From Flavobacteriales bacterium (lineage in GTDB: Bacteria > Bacteroidota > Bacteroidia > Flavobacteriales > BACL11), in NCBI GenBank assembly GCA_028122735.1, contig JAOHSR010000001.1, positions 15,711-79,710 on the forward strand: a stretch of DNA of 64,000 bases, read 5' to 3'. How positions within the stretch are numbered: position 1 is the stretch's first letter; the number at the start of each line of letters is the position of its first letter. Both the position numbers and the translations under genes were made by a program. Below, one piece after another: positions 5,090-22,577 of this stretch. Below the pieces are notes generated by a model. The model was not told the origin of the DNA. It was given only the letters and a program-made list of their open reading frames with translations, and ran no database searches.

Positions 5090-6145
5090 TTAAATGATTA
5101 ACATAGCATCACCAAAGGTGTGAAACTTATATTTTTTCTTAACAGCCTCCTTATAGGCTTTCATGAGTAAGTCATATCCAGAAAAAGCAGAAACTTGCAT
5201 CATTAAAGATGATTTTGGTAGATGAAAATTTGTTAGCATACAAGATCCAATTTTAAAATCATATGGTGGGAAAATAAAAATATTTGTCCACCCATCGTAT
5301 GGGATGACCATATTTTTTGTTGAAACAGTTGTTTCAAGACTTCTCATCACAGTAGTACCAACTGCACAGACTTTTTTTCTTCGAACAAGAGCATTATTTA
5401 TTATTGTTGATGCAGTTGAATTGATCATCATCTGCTCAGATTCCATTTTGTGTTTTGATAGATCTTCAACCATAATTGGGCTAAAAGTTCCAAGGCCAAC
5501 GTGAAGAGTTGTTTCCGCAAATTCAATTCCTTTAATTTGCATTTTTAACATTTGAGTCTTACTAAGATGTAGACCAGCAGTTGGTGCTGCTACTGCACCT
5601 TCATTTTTAGCAAATACTGTTTGATATCTTTCAGTGTCATTTGGTGTTGGTTCTCTTTTTATGAATCTCGGTAGAGGAGTTTGGCCTAATGAATTTAGGG
5701 TTTCTTTGAACTCTTCGTGAGTTCCGTCATACAAAAATCTTAAGGTTCTACCTCTTGAAGTGGTATTATCAATAACTTCTGCAATTAGTTCATCATTTTC
5801 GCCAAAAAAAAGTTTGTTTCCAATTCTAATCTTTCTTGCAGGATCAACTAGTACATCCCAAAGCCTATTTTTTTTATTTAATTCTCTTAATAAAAAGACT
5901 TCAATCCTGGCTCCTGTTTTTTCTTTATTTGCATAAAGTCTAGCGGGAAATACCTTAGTGTTATTTATACAGACTACATCTCCATCATCAAAATACTGAA
6001 TAAGATCTGAAACTTTTTTGTGTTCAATTTCTCCAGAATCTCTATGTAAAACCATTAGCTTTGCATCATCTCTATTTTTAGCTGGAGTATCTGTGATCAA
6101 CTTTTCAGGTAGATCAAAATTAAACATTGATAATTTATATTTCAT
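5090..6145 (-). CDS. queA: S-adenosylmethionine:tRNA ribosyltransferase-isomerase
   Basis: QueA-like throughout ([26 protein letters not shown]). The ORF track starts at TTG 6169. I prefer ATG 6145 ([17 protein letters not shown]) because a -7 box lies on top of the TTG at 6167..6174. Confidence 0.85.
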
Positions 6146-6166
6146 AGAATTAAATTTTAAGGTCTG

Positions 6167-6174
6167 CAAATATA
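6167..6174 (-). promoter_or_regulatory. candidate -7 box (TATATTTG on minus strand) for queA
   Basis: The plus strand reads CAAATATA. It lies 21 nt upstream of ATG 6145. Confidence 0.45.
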
Positions 6175-6203
6175 ATGTATTGGCGTCCCCTTGTCAATAG
6201 GTT

Positions 6204-6908
6204 TTATAGATTAAGTTTTTTTTTAAATTCATCAATAGTTAAAGCTCTAGCTAAATCATGATCTCCAATCTGATTTCTAGTTAACTGCGATAGGTGTGCG
6301 CCATTTTTTAGATATTTCCCAAAATCATCCGCAATTGAACGAATATAAGTGCCCTTGCTACATTCTATTTGAAATTTAAAATGAGGTAAGTCAATGTCTT
6401 TAATCTCAAATGAAAAAATAGTAGTTTCTCTGCTTTTAATTTCAATTGACTCTCCTCTTCTTGCTTTTTCATATAATCTTTCCCCCTTTACTTTTATTGC
6501 GGAATAGATAGGAGGTTTCTGTTGAATTACTCCAATAAATTTATTTGCTGTTTCTAGAATATTTTTTTTTGAAATATTTGAAATATCAAAAACTTTATCA
6601 GTTGAGGTTTCAAGATCATAAGAAGGTGTTGTAGAACCTAAAGTAATTTGTCCCGTGTAAACTTTTTTTTGACTTTGAATCTCAGAGATTTTTTTTGTGA
6701 ATTTACCAGTACAAATAATTAATAAACCACTAGCCAATGGGTCAAGAGTTCCCGCATGTCCTACTTTAATTTTTTTTATTTGATATGTTTGACGAATTAG
6801 ATTCTTGACTTTTTTTACAACATCAAAAGATGTCCAACCAATTTCTTTACGAAACAATAATATTTTCCCATCTTCAAAATCTTGTTTTGAAAAAGTATTT
6901 ACTTTCAT
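6204..6908 (-). CDS. truB: tRNA pseudouridine(55) synthase
   Basis: 234 aa. Contains the catalytic-Asp motif GHAGTLDPLASGLL. Confidence 0.9.
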   Translation of the reverse strand: MKVNTFSKQDFEDGKILLFRKEIGWTSFDVVKKVKNLIRQTYQIKKIKVGHAGTLDPLASGLLIICTGKFTKKISEIQSQKKVYTGQITLGSTTPSYDLETSTDKVFDISNISKKNILETANKFIGVIQQKPPIYSAIKVKGERLYEKARRGESIEIKSRETTIFSFEIKDIDLPHFKFQIECSKGTYIRSIADDFGKYLKNGAHLSQLTRNQIGDHDLARALTIDEFKKKLNL

Positions 6909-6915
6909 TTATTTA

Positions 6916-7704
6916 TTAAAGACTAAAAATTATTGAAATTGTCCCAATTATGAAACAGTAAAATGAAAAGTATTTAAGCTGACTGTTTTTAACTAACTTA
7001 ATCATCCATTTACAGGCTAAAATTCCAGTAAAAAATGCGCAAATAAACCCAATTACTAAAGGTAAAAATGATTGGCTGTAACTTAATGTTTCAACAGAAA
7101 TAAGGTCTTTTAAAACTTTGCCAAAAATTAGAGGAACAACCATTAGGAAAGAAAATTTTGCAGAATTTTCTTTGTCAATTCCTAATAAAACAGCCGTTGA
7201 AATTGTTGCTCCCGATCTTGATATTCCAGGAACAATGGCTATTGCTTGAGATAACCCAATTATAACTGCAGATTTAATATTAATGCGTTTGTCTGTTGGT
7301 CTTGCTTTATCAGCTAATAATAATAGTAAGCCTGTTATTATTAGCATTCCACCAACACTGACTAAATTTCCTGTAAATAGACTTTCCACTTCAGATTCAA
7401 GAAAGAAACCAACAAAAGCAGCGGGTATCATTGAAATTACAATTTTTAAAGAAAACCAAAAACTTTCATTTTTTTTAAAGCCAATTAAGTCTAATATTAT
7501 TTGTTTAATCTCATTTTTAAATATTACAATAGTACTGCATGCAGTTGCAAAGTGTAAAATCACTGTCATCAACAAGCTTTCATTTGCTAGTTTTTCCTCT
7601 CCAAGTATAACCTTGAAGATTTCCAGATGTCCACTACTACTCACAGGAAGAAACTCGGTTAAACCCTGAATAATTCCAAGGATTATAGCGTTAACTATAT
7701 CCAC
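6916..7704 (-). CDS. uppP: undecaprenyl-diphosphate phosphatase
   Basis: 262-aa polytopic membrane protein. Carries the BacA/UppP motifs SSSGHL and PGISRSGATI. Confidence 0.9.
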   Translation of the reverse strand: MDIVNAIILGIIQGLTEFLPVSSSGHLEIFKVILGEEKLANESLLMTVILHFATACSTIVIFKNEIKQIILDLIGFKKNESFWFSLKIVISMIPAAFVGFFLESEVESLFTGNLVSVGGMLIITGLLLLLADKARPTDKRINIKSAVIIGLSQAIAIVPGISRSGATISTAVLLGIDKENSAKFSFLMVVPLIFGKVLKDLISVETLSYSQSFLPLVIGFICAFFTGILACKWMIKLVKNSQLKYFSFYCFIIGTISIIFSL

Positions 7705-7923
7705 TTATTTTTTAGACTTGGTCATAATAGCAAAAACTCCCATAACAAATCCAGAAACAATGAGAATAGGGGCTAGAGTTAATCTTTGAAAGTTAAAAAT
7801 TTCTTCAGAAAATTTTGTAGGATCTTCAGAGCCTCCACCAATCATTAGAGTAATTCCTAACAAAATTAATACTAAACCAGCAATGAGTATCATGTAGTTT
7901 TTTTTCTTAAAGACAAAATCCAT
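7705..7923 (-). CDS. small two-TM membrane protein (DUF3098-like)
   Basis: 72 aa with two hydrophobic helices. It sits between ftsX and uppP, as I recall from other Flavobacteriia. The family name is from memory, not from a search. Confidence 0.6.
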   Translation of the reverse strand: MDFVFKKKNYMILIAGLVLILLGITLMIGGGSEDPTKFSEEIFNFQRLTLAPILIVSGFVMGVFAIMTKSKK

Positions 7924-7938
7924 TTGATGTAATTTTAG

Positions 7939-8817
7939 TTAATTATATAATTCCCCTTCATTTAAATAGATAAATTTTCTTACTGCAAAAAACGTTGAGG
8001 TTCCACTTAATATTATCCCAGAACAAAATAAAACAATAAAAACTAAACCAATAATTTGTAAATCATTAATATTTAGAATACTTGCCGTTTCACTTTGGAT
8101 TAATTGTATTGAACCAATTAGCATAAATATTGCGAAAATCGCACTATATAATCCCTGATAAATACCTGAGATTAAAAAGGGTTTTTGAATAAATGAGTTT
8201 TCTGCTCCAACTAATCTCATTGTTTTGATGATAAATCTTTTTGAATAGACAGAAAGTCTTATCGTATTATTTATAAGTGCAAAAGCAATAAAAAATAAGA
8301 TTATGCTTATACAAATCAAAAAAAACGAAATTTTACCAACATTACTGTTAAGCTTTTTGATTAAATTTTTTTGATAAAAAACTTCATAAACGATATCATT
8401 TTTTTCAAGCCTTGAACTAATATTCTGTAGGCTATCATTATTTGCATATGAAGAGTTTAGCTTTACATCTATCGATGCCATAACTGGATTGTATCCTAGA
8501 AAGCTGACAAAATCTTCTCCTAAATCTTTTTCTAACTCTTTTGTAGCGTGTTCTTTTGAAAAAAATCTAGTACTCTTTGTGAAATCTTCGGCATCTAATA
8601 TTTTGTTAAATTCAATTAATTCAATTTCTTTAATATCTTCTTTTATCATAATAGAAAAACCAATATTTTCCTTTACATAATTTGATAGTTTTTGGGCATT
8701 TATCAGTACAAGAGAAAGCAGTCCAACAACAAAAAGAACTAAAGAAAGACTTATTATAACTGACACTGAAGATGAGACAATTTTTTTGTTAAATGATTTG
8801 TATTTCTTCTTTCTCAT
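7939..8817 (-). CDS. ftsX: cell-division FtsX-like permease
   Basis: 292 aa. Has an N-terminal TM, a large external loop and three C-terminal TMs. MRLVGAENSFIQKPF matches the FtsX-family segment. Confidence 0.8.
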   Translation of the reverse strand: MRKKKYKSFNKKIVSSSVSVIISLSLVLFVVGLLSLVLINAQKLSNYVKENIGFSIMIKEDIKEIELIEFNKILDAEDFTKSTRFFSKEHATKELEKDLGEDFVSFLGYNPVMASIDVKLNSSYANNDSLQNISSRLEKNDIVYEVFYQKNLIKKLNSNVGKISFFLICISIILFFIAFALINNTIRLSVYSKRFIIKTMRLVGAENSFIQKPFLISGIYQGLYSAIFAIFMLIGSIQLIQSETASILNINDLQIIGLVFIVLFCSGIILSGTSTFFAVRKFIYLNEGELYN

Positions 8818-11668: not shown

Positions 11669-12472
11669 TTGAATCATCTAATAATTTTTTTTTTAAATAG
11701 TAAGATTTTTATTTCTCTTTGTGTTTTATGCCTTGCCTTATCGACTCAATTTGTTGTTGGAGTATATAACTTAAATTTACTTTTAATAATCTTTTTTGGA
11801 ACATTCTTGTCTTACAATTATCAAAGAATAATATTTCATTTGAAGTTAAAGAAAAAACTCTTTAATTCATGGTTCGTAAGAAATAATAAATTAGTTTTTT
11901 TAATAGTTGCAGCTGCAACAATATTCTTGTTTTGTTTTTTTAAGCTTAAAAATATTACTAAGTTAATGGTGATTTTAGTTTCATCAGTTTCTTTATTTTA
12001 TCCAATACTTAGGAAAATACCTCTTTTAAAAATCTTCCTTATTTCTTTTTCTTGGGCATTTTCGACAGTTGCATTAATTTATTTTGAAAATAATTTAGAT
12101 TTTAATCAGAGTTATTACGTTTCTATTATTTCACGTACATGCTTCATACTAGCAATTACTATACCTTTTGATATAAGGGATATTGAGCACGATAGATTTA
12201 AACTCAATACTATTCCTTTAGTTTTTGGAGTAGAAGTAGCAAAAAAAATTGCTTTAACTTTTTTAGCTCTTTATTTATGTATTGAGTACTATTTGTATCT
12301 TCAGGATTTTGCTTTTAATTTTATAATATCTACAAGCTTATGTTTTTTATACTCTTTCTTTATTGTAAAAAATCTTAATAAAAATGTAGGTGATTATTAC
12401 TACTCATTTTGGTTGGAGTCATGTTCAATTTCCCTTTTATTTTTTTTAATAATTACATCAATCTTGTTATAA
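11669..12472 (+). CDS. polytopic membrane protein, UbiA-prenyltransferase-like with only one recognisable Asp-rich loop
   Basis: 267 aa with about 8 hydrophobic helices and a TTG start. PFDIRDIEHD resembles the second UbiA DxxDxxxD motif. I could not find a first NDxxDxxxD motif. Confidence 0.4.
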   Translation: MNHLIIFFLNSKIFISLCVLCLALSTQFVVGVYNLNLLLIIFFGTFLSYNYQRIIFHLKLKKKLFNSWFVRNNKLVFLIVAAATIFLFCFFKLKNITKLMVILVSSVSLFYPILRKIPLLKIFLISFSWAFSTVALIYFENNLDFNQSYYVSIISRTCFILAITIPFDIRDIEHDRFKLNTIPLVFGVEVAKKIALTFLALYLCIEYYLYLQDFAFNFIISTSLCFLYSFFIVKNLNKNVGDYYYSFWLESCSISLLFFLIITSILL

Positions 12473-12510
12473 AATATCTTACTATATTTACTCCAGTTAA
12501 AACACTACAA

Positions 12511-13608
12511 ATGTCTAAAAAAAACTCTTCTGTTCATTACAATGAGTATTTGGATCTTGATAAAATACTTGATGCTCAAACCCCACTAAGTAAGGCTGGA
12601 AATAATGAGGCTCATGAAGAAATGCTTTTTATTATTATTCATCAAACTTATGAGTTGTGGTTTAAGCAAATTATTCACGAAATAGATTCTGTAATGGCTT
12701 TACTTAGTACGCAGAAAATGGATGAGGGAAATGTTGGTTTGGTAGTTGGTAGATTTGAAAGGGTAAATAAGATACTAGAAGTTTTGGTTAAGCAGTTAGA
12801 TATTTTAGAAACTATGACTGCTCTTGATTTTTTAGATTTTAGAAATTATTTGTCCCCTGCCTCTGGCTTTCAATCTCATCAATTTCGTAAAATTGAAGTG
12901 ATGTTAGGTCTTAAAATCGATAAGCGTCACCAATTTGGAGGATGCCCATATCATGATCAATTTATTGGTGAAAAGAAAGATGAAATATTAGAAATTGAAA
13001 AGGATACCTCTCTATTCGCTTTAGTTGAAAAATGGTTAGAAAGAATACCATTTTTAAATATGGAGGGGTATGACTTTGTGGATCAGTACAAGTCTTCCGT
13101 TGTTAAAATGCTTAAAAATGAAATAGCTGTAATTAATGCTTCGGGACTTAGTGAAAGCGACAAGATGATTAGGGTGAAAATGATAGAAGAAAATAGAAAA
13201 TATTTTGATAATATTTTTGATGAAAAGAATCATTTAAAATCAATTGAAAATGGATTAACTAAATTATCATACAAGGCTACTATGTCAGCATTATTAATCA
13301 ACCTTTATCGTGAACAGCCAATACTACAACTGCCGTACAAGTTTTTACGTCAACTTGTTGAAACGGATCACAAGATTTCATTGTGGAGATTTAGACATGT
13401 TCAAATGGTTGAAAAAATGTTAGGTCAAAAAATTGGAACTGGAGGCTCATCTGGACAAGGGTATTTAAAGAAAACTGTTGATCAGCATAGATTGTTTGAG
13501 GATATTGCAAATATTGCTACCCTTATGATTTCAAGAGAATATCTTCCCGAGCTCCCAAAAAATATTAAACAAAAATTGAGTTTTAATTTTACTAACAAAA
13601 AAATATGA
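12511..13608 (+). CDS. kynA: tryptophan 2,3-dioxygenase
   Basis: TDO-like throughout (YNEYLDLDKILDAQ, FRKIEVMLG, GTGGSSGQGYL). I prefer ATG 12511. The first 34 codons of the ORF-track start (12409) overlap the preceding gene. Confidence 0.88.
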   Translation: MSKKNSSVHYNEYLDLDKILDAQTPLSKAGNNEAHEEMLFIIIHQTYELWFKQIIHEIDSVMALLSTQKMDEGNVGLVVGRFERVNKILEVLVKQLDILETMTALDFLDFRNYLSPASGFQSHQFRKIEVMLGLKIDKRHQFGGCPYHDQFIGEKKDEILEIEKDTSLFALVEKWLERIPFLNMEGYDFVDQYKSSVVKMLKNEIAVINASGLSESDKMIRVKMIEENRKYFDNIFDEKNHLKSIENGLTKLSYKATMSALLINLYREQPILQLPYKFLRQLVETDHKISLWRFRHVQMVEKMLGQKIGTGGSSGQGYLKKTVDQHRLFEDIANIATLMISREYLPELPKNIKQKLSFNFTNKKI

Positions 13609-14381
13609 ATTTAGGATTAAGAAATAAAAAAGCTATTGTTTGTGGTAGTACTCAAGGAATTGGGAAATCTATTGCTGAGGAGTTGGCTTTACAAGGAGTG
13701 AGCATTACTTTAATTGCAAGAAATCAGAATGCCCTTGAGGAAGTTACCTCTTCATTAGATGTATCATTAGGCCAAAAACATGATTTCTTATGTGTTGATT
13801 TTTCTGCAAATAACTTTTCAGAGAGAATAAATTCTTTGACCCAGGATTATGATATCTTAATTAATAATACAGGAGGCCCTGCTTCAGGTCCAATTACTGA
13901 TGCGCAACCAGCAGATTTTGAAAATGCATTTAAAATGCATTTATTAAACAATCAAATTTTAGTTAAAAAAGTTGTTGAGGGAATGAAGAAAAATTCTTTT
14001 GGTCGGATAATAAATATCATCTCAACTTCTGTCAAAGCTCCAATTCCTGGTCTTGGGGTTTCTAATACTATTAGAGCAGCTGTAGCAAATTGGGCTAAAA
14101 CACTTTCTTTGGAATTAGGAATATATGGAGTCACAGTGAATAATGTATTGCCTGGATTTACAAATACTAATAGATTAAATTCTTTAATAAATAAGAAAGC
14201 AGAAGTGCAGGGAAAATCTATTGATGAAGTTGCGTCGCAAATGAAAAAATCTGTACCAATGAATAGGTTTGGTAATTCTAATGAAGTAGCTAATGCAGTT
14301 GTGTTCCTTAGTTCGATAAAAGCAAGTTATATAAATGGAATAAATTTACCTGTTGATGGTGGCAGAACAGCAAGTTTGTAG
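13605..14381 (+). CDS. short-chain dehydrogenase/reductase family protein with non-canonical active site
   Basis: 258 aa with a Rossmann loop (GSTQGIGKSIA), NNTGG and VNNVLPGF. In an ungapped comparison with E. coli FabG, recalled from memory, the YxxxK positions read S-N-T-I-R. The start overlaps the kynA stop (ATGA). Confidence 0.75.
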   Translation: MNLGLRNKKAIVCGSTQGIGKSIAEELALQGVSITLIARNQNALEEVTSSLDVSLGQKHDFLCVDFSANNFSERINSLTQDYDILINNTGGPASGPITDAQPADFENAFKMHLLNNQILVKKVVEGMKKNSFGRIINIISTSVKAPIPGLGVSNTIRAAVANWAKTLSLELGIYGVTVNNVLPGFTNTNRLNSLINKKAEVQGKSIDEVASQMKKSVPMNRFGNSNEVANAVVFLSSIKASYINGINLPVDGGRTASL

Positions 14382-14383
14382 AA

Positions 14384-15826
14384 ATGGAAAAAATAAAAAA
14401 TTATATTAACGGAGAGTTAGTTGAGCCAAGTTCAGGAAAATATATTGATAATTATAATCCTGCTTCCGGCAAAGTTTATTCATTAATACCAGATAGTAAT
14501 GAAAATGACATCAATACTGCAGTATTAGCTGCGAAAAATGCTTTTCAAAGCTGGAGTAAAACATCCAAGAAATACAGATCTGACCTTTTAATGCGTCTTG
14601 CTTCAAGAATAGAAGATTATTCAGAGGAGCTCATTATTGCAGAAAGTAGAGATAATGGTAAGCCCGAATCTTTAGCTCGCTTAGTTGACATTCCAAGAGC
14701 TTCAGAAAATTTTAGGTTTTTTGCTACTGCAATTTTACACTTTTCTTCTGAACTGCATGATATGGATGGTAGGGCTTTGAATTATACATTACGAGAACCT
14801 ATTGGTGTTGCAGCATGTATTTCTCCTTGGAATTTACCCCTTTATTTATTGACATGGAAAATAGCTCCTGCTTTAGCAGCTGGAAATACAGTAGTTGCAA
14901 AACCCTCAGAGGTTACACCAATGTCTGCTTATATTTTAAGCAAGATATGTGCAGAGATCGATTTTCCACCAGGAGTATTAAATATTGTTCATGGTTTAGG
15001 GAGTAAAATTGGGGATTCTCTTACTGGTCATGAAGATACCCCTATAGTTTCATTTACGGGCGGTACTCAAACAGGAAGACATATTGCGGGAATTGCCTCT
15101 CCAATGTTTAAGAAAATTTCTTTAGAATTAGGTGGAAAAAATCCTAATATTGTTTTTGCAGATGCAAATTTTGATAAAGCAGTTTCAATGGCAGTAAAAG
15201 CTGGTTTTTCTAACCAGGGTCAAATTTGCTTATGTGGTTCAAGACTATTTATTGAAGATGGAATTTATGAAAAATTTAAAAAAGCATTAATTGAAAAGGT
15301 GTCAAAATTAAAAGTTGGTGATCCACAAGATAATGATGTTGATTTAGGAGCTGTGGTTTCTAAGGAACACATGAATAAAGTATTATCAAAAATTACTCTA
15401 GCAAAAAAACTGGGTGGAAATATTTTAATTGGAGGAAATCGTAAATTAATAGAAGGTGATTTATCAAATGGTTATTATATTGAGCCAACCGTTATTGAAA
15501 ATCTATCATTTGACTGTGAAGTTAACCAAGAAGAAATCTTTGGCCCTGTATTAACTTTGATTCCATTTAAGGGTGAAGAAGAAGTTATTAGTATGGCAAA
15601 TTCAACAAAATATGGTCTTTCAGCTAGTATATTTACTGAAAATTTAAGCAAAGGTCATAGAGTAGCTGCTGCTGTTAAATCAGGAGTTGTTTGGATTAAT
15701 ACTTGGCTCTTAAGAGATTTACGTATTCCATTTGGAGGTATGAAACAGTCTGGAGTTGGGAGAGAGGGAGGTTTTAAATCACTACAATTTTTTACCGAAC
15801 CTAAAAATGTTTGTGTTAAAATTTAA
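14384..15826 (+). CDS. NAD-dependent aldehyde dehydrogenase, by context 2-aminomuconate-6-semialdehyde dehydrogenase
   Basis: 480 aa. Contains the ALDH glutamate motif ELGGKNP and the catalytic Cys context NQGQICLCGSR. The subfamily is inferred from operon context. Confidence 0.75.
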   Translation: MEKIKNYINGELVEPSSGKYIDNYNPASGKVYSLIPDSNENDINTAVLAAKNAFQSWSKTSKKYRSDLLMRLASRIEDYSEELIIAESRDNGKPESLARLVDIPRASENFRFFATAILHFSSELHDMDGRALNYTLREPIGVAACISPWNLPLYLLTWKIAPALAAGNTVVAKPSEVTPMSAYILSKICAEIDFPPGVLNIVHGLGSKIGDSLTGHEDTPIVSFTGGTQTGRHIAGIASPMFKKISLELGGKNPNIVFADANFDKAVSMAVKAGFSNQGQICLCGSRLFIEDGIYEKFKKALIEKVSKLKVGDPQDNDVDLGAVVSKEHMNKVLSKITLAKKLGGNILIGGNRKLIEGDLSNGYYIEPTVIENLSFDCEVNQEEIFGPVLTLIPFKGEEEVISMANSTKYGLSASIFTENLSKGHRVAAAVKSGVVWINTWLLRDLRIPFGGMKQSGVGREGGFKSLQFFTEPKNVCVKI

Positions 15827-15829
15827 AAT

Positions 15830-16246
15830 ATGAATGGAGAAAAATATAACAGTAAAAGAGCTCCACAAGCAGTCGGTCTATATCCACATGCTAGAAAAGT
15901 TGGTAATCTTTTATTTCTTTCTGGAGTTGGCCCTAGAGCTGTAAATGAACAAAAAATACCCGGAGTTAAATTAAATAAAGAAGGTGGAATAGCAAGTTAT
16001 GATATAGCAAAACAATGTCACTCTGTATTTAACAATGTTAAATATATTTTAGAAGATGCTGGCTCATCATGGGACAATATTATAGATGTTCAGGTTTTCT
16101 TAACCAATATGAAAGATGATTTTAAAATATATAATAAAATATATGCTGAATACTTTAATGAGAATCAACCTTGTAGAACTACTGTTGAGATAAATGCACT
16201 GCCAACCCCAATTGCAATTGAATTAAAAATAATAGCAACAATTTAA
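15830..16246 (+). CDS. RidA/YjgF-family deaminase, by context 2-aminomuconate deaminase
   Basis: 138 aa. YjgF-fold hallmarks are present (GNLLFLSGVG, C-terminal IAIELKIIA). The known 2-aminomuconate deaminases AmnD and NbaF belong to this family. Confidence 0.65.
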   Translation: MNGEKYNSKRAPQAVGLYPHARKVGNLLFLSGVGPRAVNEQKIPGVKLNKEGGIASYDIAKQCHSVFNNVKYILEDAGSSWDNIIDVQVFLTNMKDDFKIYNKIYAEYFNENQPCRTTVEINALPTPIAIELKIIATI

Positions 16247-16258
16247 AACATAAAAATT

Positions 16259-16795
16259 ATGAGTAAAATAAAACCCCCCTTTAACTTACAGAAATGGATT
16301 GATGATAACAGACACTTATTAAAACCACCTGTAGGAAACAAAAATTTATACGTAGAATCAGAGGATTATATTGTTATGATTGTGGCTGGTCCTAATGCAA
16401 GAAAAGATTACCACTATAATGAAACAGAAGAGTTATTTTATCAAATTGAAGGAGATATTGTTGTAAAAACACAACAAAATGGTAAGTTGGTAGAATATCC
16501 AATTAGAGAAGGCGAGATGTTTCTATTACCTCCAAAAGTACCACATTCTCCTGTTAGATCAGCAGGTTCAATTGGATTAGTCATAGAAAGAAAAAGAAAG
16601 GAAAATGATAAAGATGGTTTGATGTGGTTCTCAGATACTGCCAATGAATTATTGTATGAAGAGTATTTTAAATTAACCAATGTGGAAAAGGATTTTTTCC
16701 CGGTCTTTAAGAGATTCTATTCAGACGAAAAGCTTAGAACATGCCCAAAAACGGGAGAGGTGATGGAAGCTGATGAGCGATATATAGGTAAATAA
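16259..16795 (+). CDS. 3-hydroxyanthranilate 3,4-dioxygenase
   Basis: 178-aa cupin. Metal-ligand segments are HYNETEELFYQIEG and KVPHSPVR. Size and N-terminus (FNLQKWIDDN) are typical of HAAO. Confidence 0.85.
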   Translation: MSKIKPPFNLQKWIDDNRHLLKPPVGNKNLYVESEDYIVMIVAGPNARKDYHYNETEELFYQIEGDIVVKTQQNGKLVEYPIREGEMFLLPPKVPHSPVRSAGSIGLVIERKRKENDKDGLMWFSDTANELLYEEYFKLTNVEKDFFPVFKRFYSDEKLRTCPKTGEVMEADERYIGK

Positions 16796-16805
16796 AAAAT
16801 TCAAT

Positions 16806-17846
16806 ATGAGAATAAATGGTCATGGTCATATATTACCTGAGCCATCTCAAATCCCTAAGTTTTTAAAGGATAAGAGGCTGTTTTGGATTGATGAAGATAA
16901 AAAGTTCATGAGACAGGGTGAATGGTCAAGACCTATTAATGGTTCTGGTTTTTTCTTAAAAGAAAAAATTGAATGGATGAAGCAGAATAATATTGATCAT
17001 GCTGTTATGTTATGTCTGTCTCAGTTATATTGTAACGGTTGGGAAGAAAAAGATTGTGCAGATGCAATTCGTTTTCAAAATGATTTTAATGCTTCTATCC
17101 AAAGGGATTATCCACAAAAGTTTACATGCGGTTTTGTTGTGCAGCCATTATATATTGATCATGCTTTAAAGGAAATTGACAGATGTGTAAATGAGCTTGG
17201 TTTGAAATTACTTTGTTTACCTACACATTTTGTAAATTCTAAAGGTGAATGGTTATCAATTGCGGAAGCTGAAGTTGATCCAATTTTTGAATTAGCTAAT
17301 AAATATAAATTAGCAATTCAAATCCACCCATATGATGGTGAGAAAATGATTGCATTAAAAAATTCATACTGGAGATTTCATTTGATTTGGATGATGGCGC
17401 AATGCGCAGATACCCTTCATCTTTTTACTTTGAGGGACTTACCAAACAAATATCCAAATATAAGAACATGTTTCGCGCACGGAGGAATGTTAGGTATGGC
17501 TAATTATGGCAGGAGAATTCAAGGATTTGACGGTCGTCCCGATATCTTTGAGGAGTTACAAGACCCAAGAAAAACACTAGGTCATAAAAACTTGTATTTC
17601 GATACTTTAGTACACGATTCTCATACTTTAGACTTACTAAAAAAACGTGTAGGATCTAGTCAAATTATAATGGGTTTAGACGATCCATTTCCATTAGGTG
17701 AGATGGAAGGAGTAGGGACTTCTTATCCTGGTAGAGTTTTAGATTACGCTGTGGAGATTGGGGTTTTAACCCAACAGCAGGGTAAGGATATATGGCATAA
17801 AAATGTATTAAATTGGTTGAATTTAAATCAAGAATATTTTAAATAA
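16806..17846 (+). CDS. 2-amino-3-carboxymuconate-6-semialdehyde decarboxylase (amidohydrolase_2 family)
   Basis: 346 aa. Has the N-terminal HxH site (INGHGHILP), IHPYDG, FAHGG and DDPFPLGE, as in ACMSD-type decarboxylases. Confidence 0.8.
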   Translation: MRINGHGHILPEPSQIPKFLKDKRLFWIDEDKKFMRQGEWSRPINGSGFFLKEKIEWMKQNNIDHAVMLCLSQLYCNGWEEKDCADAIRFQNDFNASIQRDYPQKFTCGFVVQPLYIDHALKEIDRCVNELGLKLLCLPTHFVNSKGEWLSIAEAEVDPIFELANKYKLAIQIHPYDGEKMIALKNSYWRFHLIWMMAQCADTLHLFTLRDLPNKYPNIRTCFAHGGMLGMANYGRRIQGFDGRPDIFEELQDPRKTLGHKNLYFDTLVHDSHTLDLLKKRVGSSQIIMGLDDPFPLGEMEGVGTSYPGRVLDYAVEIGVLTQQQGKDIWHKNVLNWLNLNQEYFK

Positions 17847-18646
17847 TGGATGCAAAATTTCTTATTGACAACAAAGGCTATACATTAGATTTTTCAAAAT
17901 TTCATGATTTATCTATTCCAATAAACTTTAATGGGGAACAGCCTAACACTTATGGTGTTGATAAAGCAATATCAACTGCTTATGAAGATGGTAAATTCAT
18001 TGGAGACACAAGAAAAGGAGGTCCATGTAATTTCGAAACTTATTCTATTACCCCTCACTGTAATGGCACGCACACCGAATGTATTGGGCATATCACTGAC
18101 GAAAGAATTTCTATTTTATCCTCCTTAAATTCAGCTTTATTTCCAAGTACTCTAATTAGTGTTTTGCCAAAATCAAATCAAGAAACATATATTCCTAAAA
18201 TTGAAGCTAGTGATCTTTTAATCACAAAGGAGAGTTTAGAGAAAAAATTAAATGACGTATCAGATGCTTTTTTAGAGGGTTTGATTATTAGAACTTTACC
18301 AAATCTTGAGTCCAAAAAATCTATTGATTACATGAAACAAAAGCCTTCTTTTTTCACTTTAGAGGCTATGAAATACATAAGAAGCAGGGGTGTAAAGCAT
18401 TTAATGGTTGATATACCATCAGTAGACAGATTGTTTGATGATGGACATCTGAGTTGTCATAATATCTTTTGGGATACATCATCTAAAAAATTAAATACAG
18501 CTGCAATTCATTTCACAATTACAGAAATGATTTATGTAGATAATAATATTTGTGATGGTTCTTACTTTACTAATCTGCAAATACCAGCTTTTAATTCAGA
18601 TGCTGCTCCAAGTCGCCCAATAATTTTTAGTATAAATGAATTATAA
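17846..18646 (+). CDS. kynB: cyclase-family protein, candidate kynurenine formamidase with divergent metal motif
   Basis: 266 aa. HCNGTHTECIGH stands where KynB-type enzymes carry HxGTHxDxPxH. It sits between ACMSD and kynureninase in the operon. The ATG shares one nucleotide with the preceding stop (TAATG). Confidence 0.6.
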   Translation: MDAKFLIDNKGYTLDFSKFHDLSIPINFNGEQPNTYGVDKAISTAYEDGKFIGDTRKGGPCNFETYSITPHCNGTHTECIGHITDERISILSSLNSALFPSTLISVLPKSNQETYIPKIEASDLLITKESLEKKLNDVSDAFLEGLIIRTLPNLESKKSIDYMKQKPSFFTLEAMKYIRSRGVKHLMVDIPSVDRLFDDGHLSCHNIFWDTSSKKLNTAAIHFTITEMIYVDNNICDGSYFTNLQIPAFNSDAAPSRPIIFSINEL

Positions 18647-19886
18647 AAAAACTAAAGAATTTGCACAAATACTTGATAATGATGATCCATTAGCATCATA
18701 TCAAAGTCAATTTCATTTTCCATATCAAAGAGATGGAAATAAACATATTTATCTGTGCGGAAATTCACTTGGACTACAAAGTAAAAAAACTTCTGATTTT
18801 GTTAATCAAGAATTAGAGGATTGGAAGACTTTAGGAGTTGAAGGGCATTTTCATGCTAGAAATCCATGGCTCCCATATCATGAATTTTTATCGGAAAGTT
18901 ATTCTAAAATTATTGGTGCAAAAGCTACAGAAGTTATTGCAATGAATACATTATCTGTTAATTTACATTTAATGCTTGTTTCATTTTATAGACCAAGTAA
19001 AAAACGCTTTAAAATTATAATTGAGGATGATGCATTTCCTTCAGATATTTATGCAGTTGAATCTCATATTAGTCATCACGGCTTAGATCCTGACAAGGTT
19101 CTTATAAAACTAAAGCCTCGTAAGGGAGAGGCAGCACTAAGAACTGGTGATATTACTAAATATATAAAAGAAAATTCATCAGAGATTGCATTAATAATGT
19201 TGGGTGGTGTAAATTATTATACTGGACAGGTTTTTGACATGCAAAAAATTACTAAAGTAGCTAAAGAAAATAAAATTATAGTTGGTTTTGATTTAGCTCA
19301 TGCAGCAGGAAACATAAAGTTGGCATTACATGAATGGGGTGTAGATTTTGCCGTTTGGTGCTCATATAAATATTTAAATTCTGGACCTGGTTCTGTTGGC
19401 GGAGTATTTATTCACGAAAAGCATCATGAGAAAAGCATCCCAAGGTTTGCTGGATGGTGGGGTCATGATAAAGATAGTAGATTTAAAATGCCTGATAAAT
19501 TTATTCCGATTAACACCGCAGAAGGCTGGCAATTAAGTAATCCTCCAATTTTGTCACTTGCAGCGGTTCGCGCTTCCTTGTCATTATTTGATGAGGTTGG
19601 AATGGAAAATCTAATTGATAAATCAAAAAAATTAACATCGTATTTAGTTTTTTTAATGGAAAATTTATCCTCGAATAGAATTAGTATTATTACTCCTGAG
19701 GAGCGTGGTTGTCAAATATCAATTAGAGTTTTAAATGGTAACAAGCAGTTATTTGATGAAATTACTACAAGAGGTGTCATTGCTGACTGGAGAGAGCCTG
19801 ATGTTATTAGAGTTGCTCCTGTCCCCTTATATAATAGTTATATGGATGTGTTTAATTTTTATAAAATTTTAGAAGATATATTATAA
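18636..19886 (+). CDS. kynU: kynureninase
   Basis: 416 aa. The PLP-lysine context is AVWCSYKYLNSGPG. The overall class-V aminotransferase-like layout is typical of KynU. It overlaps the upstream gene by 11 nt. Confidence 0.9.
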   Translation: MNYKKTKEFAQILDNDDPLASYQSQFHFPYQRDGNKHIYLCGNSLGLQSKKTSDFVNQELEDWKTLGVEGHFHARNPWLPYHEFLSESYSKIIGAKATEVIAMNTLSVNLHLMLVSFYRPSKKRFKIIIEDDAFPSDIYAVESHISHHGLDPDKVLIKLKPRKGEAALRTGDITKYIKENSSEIALIMLGGVNYYTGQVFDMQKITKVAKENKIIVGFDLAHAAGNIKLALHEWGVDFAVWCSYKYLNSGPGSVGGVFIHEKHHEKSIPRFAGWWGHDKDSRFKMPDKFIPINTAEGWQLSNPPILSLAAVRASLSLFDEVGMENLIDKSKKLTSYLVFLMENLSSNRISIITPEERGCQISIRVLNGNKQLFDEITTRGVIADWREPDVIRVAPVPLYNSYMDVFNFYKILEDIL

Positions 19887-19887
19887 A

Positions 19888-21225
19888 ATGGAGAAAAAAA
19901 TCATAATAGTTGGAGCCGGTCTTGCAGGCTCTTTATGTGCTTTATATATGCTGCAGCGTGGTTATGCTGTATCAATTTATGAGAGAAGATCCGATATGCG
20001 TAAGTCTGTAATGACTGCTGGTCGCTCTATTAATCTTGCTTTGTCAGAAAGAGGCTGGACTGCTTTAAAAAAAGTTGATATTGAAGATAAAGTAATGGAG
20101 ATTTCTATTCCCATGCCAAAAAGAATAATGCATGATTTAGAAGGAGGGCTTACTGATCAGTACTATGGTAATGAGGACCAAGCGATTTATTCAGTTCCGA
20201 GAGGTGAGCTTAATGTTTTGTTAATGAATCTGGCTGAAGAAAAAGGAGCTCAAATATTTTTTAATCACAAATGTGTTGATGTTAATACAGAATATGCTGA
20301 GTTAAAGCTAATTAATGACAAAGAAGGATCTGAAATCAATATTAAATGTGATTTAATTGTTGGTGCAGATGGGGCATTTTCTGCTGTAAGAGATAAAATG
20401 AGTCGTCAGGATCGGTTTCAGTTTTCACAATATTATATAGAACATGGATATAAAGAGTTGTTAATTCCTGCTAATAATGATGGCTCTCATAAAATTGAAA
20501 AGAATGCATTACATATATGGCCCAGAGGGAATTTTATGCTAATTGCCTTGCCTAATTTAGATGGGAGTTATACATGTACACTTTTTTCTCCTTTTGAAGG
20601 GGAGGATTCATTTAAAGAGCTTAATACACCCAAAAAAGTAACATCTTTTTTTAACAAGGTATTTAAGGATTTTACGCCATTAATTCCCAATCTGGTTGAT
20701 CAGTTTTTTAATAATCCAACAGCATCGCTTGGTATTTTTAAATGTTATCCATGGCATATCAAAGGACATTGTGTATTAATCGGAGACTCTGCTCATGCTA
20801 CTGTTCCTTTTTATGGACAAGGAATGAATGCGAGTTTTGAAGATTGCAGGGTTCTTGATGAATTAGTTGAGAAGTATGAGGAAGACTTCTCATTAGTATT
20901 AAAAGCGTTTTCTAAATCAAGAAAGCCAAACGGAGATGGTTTACAGGATCTTTCATTACACAATTTTATTGTAATGAGAGACAAGACAGCTGACCCAAAA
21001 TTTTTATTACAAAAGAAAATAGAACAAAAATTTTCTCAATTATATCCTGATAAATGGGTTCCATTGTACACAATGGTATCTTTTACTAATATTTCATATT
21101 CTGACGCATGGGAAATTGGTATGCAACAAGAAAAACTTATGTCAGATATTATGTCAATTAAAAATATCGATAAACTTTGGGACTCTGATGAGGTTATGCA
21201 AAAAATGCTTGATCTTTCTATATAA
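19888..21225 (+). CDS. kmo: kynurenine 3-monooxygenase (FAD-dependent)
   Basis: 445 aa. Contains the FAD loop IIVGAGLAGS and the GD motif LIGDSAHATVPFYGQGMN. Confidence 0.88.
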   Translation: MEKKIIIVGAGLAGSLCALYMLQRGYAVSIYERRSDMRKSVMTAGRSINLALSERGWTALKKVDIEDKVMEISIPMPKRIMHDLEGGLTDQYYGNEDQAIYSVPRGELNVLLMNLAEEKGAQIFFNHKCVDVNTEYAELKLINDKEGSEINIKCDLIVGADGAFSAVRDKMSRQDRFQFSQYYIEHGYKELLIPANNDGSHKIEKNALHIWPRGNFMLIALPNLDGSYTCTLFSPFEGEDSFKELNTPKKVTSFFNKVFKDFTPLIPNLVDQFFNNPTASLGIFKCYPWHIKGHCVLIGDSAHATVPFYGQGMNASFEDCRVLDELVEKYEEDFSLVLKAFSKSRKPNGDGLQDLSLHNFIVMRDKTADPKFLLQKKIEQKFSQLYPDKWVPLYTMVSFTNISYSDAWEIGMQQEKLMSDIMSIKNIDKLWDSDEVMQKMLDLSI

Positions 21226-21457: not shown

Positions 21458-21862
21458 ATGATTAAATTTTTACTCCTCTTTTTTTTGATTCCCTTTTATA
21501 GCTATTCTGGCTGTGAAGATGGAGACTGTAATAATGGCTATGGTACATATATATGGTTTAATGGTGATACTGATACGCGTGGTTGGGTTGAGGGAGATAA
21601 ATATGTTGGTATGTTTCTTAATGGAAAGATGCACGGACACGGAATACTTTATTTTAAAAACGGCAATATTTATAATGGATCATTTCATAATGGAAGCAAG
21701 TCAGGCTATGGAAGTTTAATTTACAAAAACGGAGAAAAGTATTTGGGTAATTTTTTAAATGACAAGAAGCATGGCGCCGGAATTTTAATTACTAATAATG
21801 GGGAAGAGAACAATGTTCGTTATAAATTTGGTGTAAAATTGAAGGATAATGAATTATTTTAA
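21458..21862 (+). CDS. MORN-repeat lipoprotein
   Basis: 134 aa. Signal peptide with a lipobox-like FYSYSGC, then an acidic stretch after the Cys (EDGD). At least four YxGxxxxGxxxGxG MORN units follow (YVGMFLNGKMHGHG, YNGSFHNGSKSGYG, YLGNFLNDKKHGAG). Confidence 0.75.
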   Translation: MIKFLLLFFLIPFYSYSGCEDGDCNNGYGTYIWFNGDTDTRGWVEGDKYVGMFLNGKMHGHGILYFKNGNIYNGSFHNGSKSGYGSLIYKNGEKYLGNFLNDKKHGAGILITNNGEENNVRYKFGVKLKDNELF

Positions 21863-22577
21863 ATTTAATAGTCTATTTTTTTTATTAATACTTTTTTACT
21901 GTAATAATTCTTTTGCACAAATTGATCTCTTAAAGGATTTTTCAAAAAATACAGATGTTATTTTTAGAAAAAAAAACATTTCAAATAATGAAATTTATTC
22001 TGGACTAAATGAGGCTTTAGTAATTTCTGTTAAAAATTCTTGTAATAAAGCTTCAAAGGCAGGCGGGTTTTTAGAGAATAATAAAATTAGAATAGACTTT
22101 CCTAAAGAAATCATAAGAGTTAAAATATCATGTAATAAGATAGGTTTATCTCATTTGGTTGTCAAATTTGAAGGTAAATTAAATAAAACTGCTGAACAAA
22201 TTTCATTGTACGCTAGTGAGATAATTTTAGAATCTGTTAATGATTTAAAATTTACTGACGCTATTGCTATTTTGAATGGTCCCGAAAACGCTCTAACTAA
22301 ATATTTGAGAGATGATTCATATAATAATTTATATAATGCTTTTTACCCACAAACACTGAGAGCCATTTCCAATACTGGTATTCAAAAGCTATTTGATAAT
22401 ATCATAAAAAAATATAATAAAATACCGCTAGTTAAAAAAGTAGATTTTGATTTGTCAAATTATATAACCGTTAAAACAATTGATGGAATTTTTTTTCTAA
22501 TTAGCGAAGAAGAAAAAAAGATTAGAAATAATCCAAAGGCTAGAACCACTGAACTTTTACAGAAAATTTTTAAATAA
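21849..22577 (+). CDS. secreted protein, DUF4197-like
   Basis: 242 aa with a signal peptide (FFLLILFYCNNSFAQ). The segments SNNEIYSGLNEAL, TDAIAILNGPENALTKYL and KKYNKIP match my recollection of the DUF4197 pattern. It overlaps the MORN gene by 14 nt. Confidence 0.5.
   Translation: MNYFKFNSLFFLLILFYCNNSFAQIDLLKDFSKNTDVIFRKKNISNNEIYSGLNEALVISVKNSCNKASKAGGFLENNKIRIDFPKEIIRVKISCNKIGLSHLVVKFEGKLNKTAEQISLYASEIILESVNDLKFTDAIAILNGPENALTKYLRDDSYNNLYNAFYPQTLRAISNTGIQKLFDNIIKKYNKIPLVKKVDFDLSNYITVKTIDGIFFLISEEEKKIRNNPKARTTELLQKIFK

Follow-up and report, generated by a model that had tools for sequence, protein, structure and literature searches.

What becomes of 2-aminomuconate once the kynurenine pathway has produced it? 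The question is raised by a nine-gene operon in a 64,000-nucleotide stretch of DNA, here called the window, from a Flavobacteriales bacterium (GenBank assembly GCA_028122735.1, contig JAOHSR010000001.1). The second gene of the operon (13605-14381, + strand) encodes a 258-residue short-chain dehydrogenase/reductase (SDR), which an earlier reading of the sequence, the original prediction, described as lacking the catalytic Tyr and Lys and put forward as a candidate for the reduction of 2-aminomuconate to 2-oxoadipate. For decades the end of the pathway, the step after 2-aminomuconate, was left undefined. In animals it has been settled by work from 2026, with an unexpected product: in a preprint of June 2026 the 2-aminomuconate reductase of humans is named as ASPDH and its product given as L-2-aminohex-3-enedioate, not 2-oxoadipate, and fungi are assigned a bacterial-type deaminase (bioRxiv 10.64898/2026.06.05.730449). 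The premise that the animal gene had not been identified is therefore out of date.

Here we suggest that the window SDR is an NADPH-dependent C=C (conjugate) reductase that would act on 2-oxohex-3-enedioate, in the branch of the pathway that follows ACMS decarboxylase (ACMSD). We give this reading a probability of roughly 0.5. A role of some kind for the protein in the post-ACMSD branch we consider far likelier.

A serine and an arginine replace the catalytic dyad

The open reading frame (ORF) of the SDR overlaps the end of kynA in an ATGA (13605-13608), the start codon ATG at 13605-13607 running into the kynA stop codon TGA at 13606-13608, as originally described; this and the other features of the operon given below lie on the + strand. 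The Rossmann half of the protein is ordinary. It carries the glycine-rich dinucleotide motif GSTQGIG (G14-S-T-Q-G18-I-G20, 13644-13664) and the sequence NNTGG at residues 87-91, and the protein matches Pfam adh_short (E 2e-33) and adh_short_C2 (E 1e-35), with NAD_binding_10 and Sacchrp_dh_NADP as the only additional matches.

The active site was compared with that of Escherichia coli FabG using a reference sequence identical to PDB 1I01, which also bore out the FabG segment used in the original prediction. Two alignments were used, one of 24 orthologues at 43-60% identity, in which G14, G18 and G20 are invariant, and a ten-sequence MAFFT alignment with FabG, AerF, 5VA8 and diverse relatives. 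In the latter the FabG tetrad N110/S138/Y151/K155 falls opposite H112/S140/S153/R157 of the window SDR. The protein has the Rossmann glycine motif and the NNAG-type element of classical SDRs, and does not have their Asn-Ser-Tyr-Lys tetrad. The segment that replaces Y-x-x-x-K is S153-N154-T-I-R157 (14061-14075; codons TCT AAT ACT ATT AGA). The counterpart of the catalytic Ser, S140 (14022-14024), is invariant, and on helix alpha-4 the sequence H112-L-L-N-N116 (13938-13952) puts His in place of the classical Asn, with H112 and N116 occupying the positions of the K-x3-Y pair of AerF and BacG.

These features were followed through a genome scan with one genome per species, which returned at least 80 orthologous loci at 50-61% identity, 80 of which were analysed. 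Residues S140, S153, N154, R157, W163, T188 and R190 are invariant in all 24 aligned orthologues and in all 80 genomic ones, and H112 with N116 is retained in 78 of the 80, the remaining two having H112 with Ser at 116. The tyrosines of the window SDR are Y82, Y174 and Y242, none of them within the active-site segment 140-165. A shifted Tyr or Lys was ruled out, as neither alignment has a conserved Tyr or Lys near the site; the pair is truly absent. A decaying gene or pseudogene was likewise ruled out by the invariance of the substituting residues among orthologues only 43-60% identical and by a confident AlphaFold2 model (predicted local distance difference test 95.4) with the strand and helix order of an SDR. 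Because the replacing residues are invariant across orthologues, the substitution is a product of selection.

Two further sites bear on the cofactor and the substrate. R39, after strand beta-2 (13719-13721), is invariant among the 24 orthologues, with Arg in the same column of 5VA8 and AerF, and is likely to contact the 2'-phosphate of NADP(H). The sequence T188-N-R190 after the PG motif (14166-14174) is also invariant, and its Thr and Arg recur in AerF, BacG, 5VA8 and APE0912, with Met at the column of R190 in FabG. T188 would be the usual nicotinamide contact, and the extra invariant R190 is a candidate carboxylate binder.

Loss of Tyr and Lys is the hallmark of a family

The missing Tyr and Lys are no peculiarity of the window gene, since their loss defines a large family. 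A scan of 1.84 billion representatives, clustered at 50% identity, placed relatives of the window SDR in 631 clusters at E<1e-30, and most of the top 150 have S-N-x-x-R. The best matches in both sequence and fold were the Burkholderia structures 5VA8, 5VPS and 5IDX/5IDY, which have generic names and are all NADP(H) complexes, followed by AerF (6JH7/6JHA/6JHB), APE0912 (2Z1N), TM1169 (1O5I), BacG/YwfH (3U49/3U4C) and then ordinary FabGs; the structural neighbours were SDRs throughout. Structures with S-N-x-x-R match at E 2e-47 to 8e-38, with about 33-34% identity and template modelling (TM) scores up to 0.94. AerF is 38% identical (E 1.9e-42, TM 0.91) and BacG/YwfH about 30% (E 3.5e-30, TM 0.89). 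Judged from these alignments, Tyr/Lys loss is the hallmark of an SDR family with solved structures (5VA8, 5VPS, 5IDX, 2Z1N) and not the oddity of a single gene. As the nearest structures contain NADP(H) and R39 is invariant, NADPH is the likely cofactor.

The family motif, S140...S-N-x-x-R...P-G-x-x-x-T-x-R with an Arg after beta-2, is complete in the window SDR and invariant at every position. The same S...S-N-x-x-R...T-x-R pattern is present in 5VA8, 5VPS, 5IDX, 5IDY, 2Z1N and 1O5I, with NADP(H) in the crystals, but at the position of H112 these structures retain the classical Asn, and W163 is replaced by Phe, Leu or Val. We define a kynurenine-linked clade by H112-x3-N/S/A116 and W163 on top of the family motif, together with adjacency to the gene for 3-hydroxyanthranilate 3,4-dioxygenase (HAO), ACMSD or 2-aminomuconate-6-semialdehyde dehydrogenase (AMSDH). 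The window SDR falls within this definition, having the residue pattern common to 78 of the 80 loci and a complete kynurenine operon around it. In a neighbour-joining tree it forms a single clade with all 80 genomic orthologues, to the exclusion of 5VA8, APE0912, AerF, BacG and FabG.

Public annotations call these proteins 'SDR family oxidoreductase', '3-oxoacyl-ACP reductase' or 'FabG' and, by best match, 'BacG/YwfH'. Membership of FabG or of another named NCBIfam equivalog was rejected, the window SDR scoring 128 bits against TIGR01830 (cut-off 297.75) and 141.9 against NF009466 (cut-off 222). The S-N-x-x-R proteins presumably correspond to the 'BKR-like' SDRs of CDD group cd05344. In Paraburkholderia (locus L082, 8001-10276) the gene for a 5VA8-type SDR immediately precedes those for methylglyoxal synthase and a protein resembling Zn-dependent alcohol dehydrogenases/quinone oxidoreductases. 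The three contigs shown, with the same protein and nearly identical flanks, agree in this arrangement, which hints at 2-oxoaldehyde metabolism.

Kynurenine genes are the conserved neighbours of the SDR

The 80 loci come mostly from Bacteroidota of many families, and also from Calditrichaceae, Ignavibacteria, Planctomycetota and metagenome-assembled genomes (MAGs) of Alteromonadaceae and Sphingomonadales. Their flanks, up to 10 kb, were searched by tblastn with the proteins of the window operon. Kynurenine genes were found in the flanks of 53 of the 80 SDR loci, and in 48 they come to 400 bp or less from the SDR. Adjoining it are HAO, AMSDH, ACMSD, tryptophan 2,3-dioxygenase (TDO) or kynureninase (KYNU), with HAO and AMSDH the commonest. 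The linked loci belong to Bacteroidota, Calditrichaceae, Ignavibacteria, Planctomycetaceae and the Alteromonadaceae MAG, which makes at least four phyla, and they show at least four gene orders. With KMO for kynurenine 3-monooxygenase, KynB for the kynurenine formamidase and ALDH for the AMSDH-type aldehyde dehydrogenase, these include TDO-SDR-ALDH-RidA-HAO-ACMSD-KynB-KYNU-KMO, KYNU-KMO-RidA-ALDH-SDR-HAO-ACMSD, ACMSD and HAO divergent from SDR-ALDH-RidA, TDO-SDR-ALDH and, at some loci, the SDR-ALDH pair alone.

All-against-all clustering of 1,309 flanking ORFs identified the kynurenine genes as the sole conserved neighbours, lineage-specific synteny aside. A set of 80 metagenome loci anchored on ACMSD gave a similar picture from the other side: the contigs permit a judgement in 31 cases, and in 28 of these the SDR adjoins AMSDH. 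The view that the SDR is not a passenger in the operon is thus upheld, since 48 of 80 species, spread over several phyla and arrangements, have the orthologue beside HAO, ACMSD, AMSDH, RidA, TDO or KYNU. Overall, the gene neighbourhood makes a strong guilt-by-association case for a 2-oxoadipate-forming step.

Several other genes were noted at these loci. At three loci of the metagenome set, L149 (11165-12097), L143 and L148, a 310-residue extended SDR with a normal YGISK lies between ACMSD and AMSDH, and no S-N-x-x-R SDR is present, whether through non-orthologous replacement or by coincidence. We take the protein to resemble a GalE-type epimerase or L-threonine dehydrogenase. Sixteen Flavobacteriaceae loci (L066, 12941-13582, and 15 others) have a gene of about 213 codons after ACMSD that looks O-methyltransferase-like by eye. 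This could reflect synteny within the lineage, or the product may methylate a hydroxylated kynurenine intermediate. At one locus only (L026, 14749-15405) an ORF beginning MLDKDGIAKRIAQELKDGYYVNLGIGIPT lies directly downstream of AMSDH; it presumably resembles the B subunit of a 3-oxoacid CoA-transferase.

Lower meta-cleavage genes are absent from all but one of these loci

The original prediction had observed that the operon has no 4-oxalocrotonate decarboxylase (4-OD), hydratase or aldolase gene. With E. coli MhpD (for 4-OD/hydratase), MhpE (aldolase) and MhpF (acetaldehyde dehydrogenase) as queries, tblastn found no such genes in the 64-kb window, and Pfam scans of the other large ORFs in the window, including all 50 of at least 150 residues, revealed no lower meta-cleavage genes. 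Homologues were also absent from the flanks of 79 of the 80 genome loci and all 80 metagenome loci, or 159 of 160 together.

The remaining locus, L017 from Mesonia aestuariivivens, has an MhpD/4-OD-like gene (5799-6587), its product 31% identical to E. coli MhpD, in the cluster of the SDR with KMO and RidA on either side, and a 425-residue ORF (7131-8408) inserted before the ALDH. This region (5799-8408) may represent a hybrid or transitional pathway, or an SDR acting on a decarboxylated enoate.

A proposed conjugate reduction of 2-oxohex-3-enedioate

The sole characterised relatives of the window SDR are C=C reductases. BacG from Bacillus subtilis, which functions in bacilysin synthesis, carries out the same conjugate reduction as AerF from Microcystis aeruginosa, converting dihydro-4-hydroxyphenylpyruvate (H2HPP), a 2-oxo-3-enoic acid, to tetrahydro-4-hydroxyphenylpyruvate (H4HPP). 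AerF was reportedly studied by Qiu et al. in 2020, and in literature citing that study it is named an alkenal double-bond reductase. Both proteins bind NADPH, and they share with the window SDR the fold (TM 0.89-0.92), T-x-R after PG and the Arg after beta-2. The Tyr and Lys of the classical Y-x3-K site have gone from all three, leaving S..R in the window SDR, S..N in AerF and N..N in BacG, so AerF likewise has Ser at the Tyr position. Opposite Arg157 and Ser140 of the window SDR, AerF and BacG have Asn and Gly, respectively. PMC13256417 describes AerF as a double-bond reductase that uses NADPH, has H2HPP as its substrate and is mechanistically unusual among SDRs. Both enzymes serve secondary-metabolite biosynthesis, of aeruginosin and bacilysin, not catabolism. 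Their substrate and 2-oxohex-3-enedioate have the same functional group, in which C3=C4 is conjugated with the 2-oxo acid. Because both enzymes use NADPH to reduce such a conjugated C=C, a reduction yielding 2-oxoadipate is chemically credible.

The cofactor, substrate, product and residue roles that we infer would fit together as follows. AMSDH would yield 2-aminomuconate, which would lose ammonia to give 2-oxohex-3-enedioate, either spontaneously or through the RidA-type deaminase; deamination to this product by a RidA-type deaminase has been described (10.64898/2026.06.05.730449). As 2-oxohex-3-enedioate has the same 2-oxo-3-enoic group that AerF and BacG reduce, we propose that the SDR would deliver hydride from NADPH to C4 of the enone and that protonation at C3 would then give 2-oxoadipate. 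Ser140, Ser153 and Asn154 would polarise the carbonyl, and the enolate would be held by Ser140, Ser153 and the guanidinium groups of Arg157 and Arg190. The two arginines probably bind the carboxylates, and His112 is a possible proton relay. The 2-oxoadipate formed could feed the glutaryl-CoA route, so that the SDR step would stand in for the 4-OD/hydratase/aldolase route of Proteobacteria.

A pathway-linked role other than C=C reduction has also to be considered, either carbonyl reduction (of 2-oxoadipate to 2-hydroxyadipate, or of an aldehyde to an alcohol in detoxification) or that of a non-catalytic, NADPH-binding partner of AMSDH. The gene neighbourhood indicates functional linkage and not chemistry, and the S-N-x-x-R entries from structural genomics carry generic names only, both of which leave room for such a role. 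Carbonyl-reducing SDRs nearly always keep their Tyr and Lys, however, whereas the window SDR has neither, and its invariant polar cluster S140/S153/N154/R157/R190 argues for catalysis. Given also that the characterised relatives are C=C reductases, we regard this role as distinctly unlikely.

RidA bears on the order of events. It adjoins the SDR in about 20 of the 53 linked loci, a lower bound since the RidA of L017 fell below the tblastn threshold. Across the 80 genomic loci two types of RidA occur beside the SDR, one 61-78% identical to that of the window and the other, in Flavobacteriaceae, 37-41% identical. Were the SDR a true 2-aminomuconate reductase, it would reduce the C=C through the 2-imino-3-ene tautomer, and RidA would then hydrolyse 2-iminoadipate to 2-oxoadipate and ammonia. 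This draws on the same neighbourhood evidence, is compatible with the window order SDR-ALDH-RidA, and agrees with RidA proteins being best known as 2-imino-acid deaminases; many PDB matches of the window RidA are 2-iminobutanoate/2-iminopropanoate deaminases. Yet RidA is beside the SDR in only this minority of linked loci, the window RidA also matches the validated 2-aminomuconate deaminase 6izh (E 4e-20, amid generic RidA matches), and the substrates of AerF and BacG are 2-oxo and not 2-imino acids. We therefore think it unlikely that reduction comes before deamination.

The SDR could also act one step earlier, before AMSDH, on the alkenal 2-aminomuconate semialdehyde. Reduction of its C4=C5 would block cyclisation to picolinate, leaving AMSDH and RidA to form 2-oxoadipate. 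The SDR-ALDH pairing is the tightest of all and at some loci stands alone, the window order SDR-ALDH-RidA fits, and the name given to AerF in citing literature is that of an alkenal reductase. Against these stand the close relationship of the ALDH (E 1e-132) to enzymes validated on the unreduced semialdehyde, the actual substrate of AerF, which is a conjugated 2-oxo acid, and the invariant Arg157 and Arg190, which would suit a dicarboxylate better than an aldehyde-acid. An early action of this kind seems improbable to us. Of the original proposal, then, a reductase forming 2-oxoadipate is credible through the chemistry of AerF and BacG, while 2-aminomuconate, its deamination product and the semialdehyde are not separable as substrates by sequence.

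Several observations weigh against conjugate reduction of 2-oxohex-3-enedioate by the window SDR. On helix alpha-4, AerF and BacG have K-x3-Y, for which the window SDR has H112-x3-N116; we take K113 and Y117 of BacG to be the catalytic pair, and the mechanism of these enzymes is not simply transferable. Both also lie outside the S-N-x-x-R family in the neighbour-joining tree. Neither the Pfam scans of the window nor the conserved neighbours include genes for 2-oxoadipate or glutaryl-CoA metabolism, and L017, alone among the 160 loci, has the SDR together with an MhpD/4-OD-like gene. The 5VA8-type S-N-x-x-R gene of Paraburkholderia adjoins methylglyoxal synthase and a Zn-dependent alcohol dehydrogenase and not kynurenine genes. 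Because the context of this relative differs, the kynurenine link is a trait of one clade and not of the whole S-N-x-x-R family. The context of the Burkholderia homologues was rejected as a guide to the function of the family, being uninformative for the kynurenine-linked clade.

Finally, 27 of the 80 orthologues have no kynurenine gene in the available flanks of up to 10 kb. They could be taken, along with the database names, as signs of a generic FabG-like or housekeeping SDR that entered the operon by chance. That explanation is already largely refuted, and we consider it highly implausible: the catalytic Tyr and Lys of FabG are gone, the scores against the FabG models are far under the cut-offs, kynurenine adjacency across phyla and gene orders is beyond chance, and the ATGA overlap with kynA is consistent with translational coupling.

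Organisation of the operon and its flanks

The operon is compact, with nine genes running from kynA to KMO (12508-21225). The first, kynA (12508-13608), encodes TDO (Pfam Trp_dioxygenase, E 4e-97); ATG 12508 is its likely start, the mechanically called ORF beginning at TTG 12409. Two nucleotides after the stop codon of the SDR begins the AMSDH-type ALDH (14384-15826), with the 2-aminomuconate-6-semialdehyde dehydrogenases 7bzv and 4i1w as its best PDB matches (E 2e-132 to 4e-128), and this is followed by the RidA-family protein, a probable 2-aminomuconate (enamine/imine) deaminase (15830-16246; Pfam Ribonuc_L-PSP). HAO (16259-16795) matches its Pfam family and NCBIfam NF009763 (254 bits, cut-off 220), and ACMSD (16806-17846) matches Pfam Amidohydro_2 and human ACMSD (PDB 2wm1 and 4ofc, E 1e-31). 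These PDB matches agree with the ACMSD, the dehydrogenase and the deaminase recognised earlier in the operon. The remaining genes encode a cyclase-type, KynB-like kynurenine formamidase (17846-18646; Pfam Cyclase, E 1.5e-10, with a weak match to TIGR03035), KYNU (18636-19886; TIGR01814, 452 bits, cut-off 246) and the flavin adenine dinucleotide-dependent KMO (19888-21225; Pfam FAD_binding_3), which is syntenic with KYNU in related loci.

The window ACMSD is much nearer to the human enzyme than to that of Pseudomonas fluorescens (E 2e-11). In Hymenobacter, Chitinophagaceae and similar loci the corresponding place is taken by another ACMSD-like type, which is only 27-31% identical. Upstream of the operon lies a hydrophobic ORF of 267 residues (11669-12472) with no Pfam match, the end of which is overlapped by the TTG-extended kynA; downstream (21458-22577) are a MORN-repeat protein and a DUF4197 protein. 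Promoter and terminator scans gave counts not above those of shuffled controls, and Rfam and tRNA scans of the window returned no matches.

Significance and comparison with known systems

Apart from the ASPDH preprint and a figure in a review, which names a hypothetical 'oxalocrotonate reductase', a literature search yielded no paper on a bacterial reductase of 2-oxohex-3-enedioate, oxalocrotonate or 2-aminomuconate, or with mention of an SDR of the window type. In a different setting, the legend to Fig. 5 of PMC7842363 mentions an SDR syntenic with the fungal HAO/ACMSD/AMSDH/deaminase cluster (the Aspergillus 3-hydroxyanthranilate cluster) in some aspergilli.

The window SDR is a testable candidate for 2-oxoadipate formation in organisms that deaminate 2-aminomuconate and have no 4-OD, which include many Bacteroidota and possibly fungi, and orthologues are present in cultured strains, among them Winogradskyella aurantia (L013), Tenacibaculum sp. 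TC6 (L009) and Hymenobacter perfusus (L033). Somewhat tentatively, at slightly less than even odds, we suggest that its clade comprises the first S-N-x-x-R, Tyr/Lys-less SDRs to be given a function, as C=C reductases of 2-oxohex-3-enedioate or 2-aminomuconate with a Ser/Arg active site. Beside the proteobacterial 4-OD route and metazoan ASPDH they would open a third, hitherto unrecognised fate for 2-aminomuconate, in a Bacteroidota-centred route from tryptophan to 2-oxoadipate and glutaryl-CoA. If this is true, bacteria abundant in the sea and in soil would have a complete path from tryptophan to glutaryl-CoA, annotations as 'FabG' or 'BacG' would be put right in their thousands, and an SDR family able to do without the Tyr-Lys pair would gain a first function and a mechanistic entry. 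A reductase that converts a 2-oxo-enoate to 2-oxoadipate may also suit engineered routes to adipate.

Among known systems, the 2-aminomuconate reductase ASPDH resembles the proposed SDR in catalysing an NAD(P)H-dependent step right after 2-aminomuconate, and was also traced by comparative genomics. It differs in having the aspartate dehydrogenase fold, which the window SDR with its SDR-type Pfam matches and SDR-only structural neighbours does not have, and in reducing C=N with migration of the double bond, with neither 2-oxoadipate nor a deaminase involved. The proteobacterial lower pathway, consisting of 4-OD, 2-oxopent-4-enoate hydratase and 4-hydroxy-2-oxovalerate aldolase and found in the nba and amn clusters and the kynurenine cluster of Burkholderia cenocepacia, has the same input, 2-oxohex-3-enedioate. 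Unlike the proposed SDR route, it forms pyruvate and acetaldehyde through cleavage of C-C bonds. A reaction of the type that we propose for the SDR is known from the 3-oxoadipate pathway, where maleylacetate reductase (EC 1.3.1.32) reduces the C=C of an oxohexenedioate to an oxoadipate with NAD(P)H at the end of a ring-cleavage pathway. That enzyme, however, has an iron-type alcohol dehydrogenase fold, acts on the 4-oxo-2-ene isomer and forms 3-oxoadipate, whereas the SDR of the window would reach 2-oxoadipate from the 2-oxo-3-ene.

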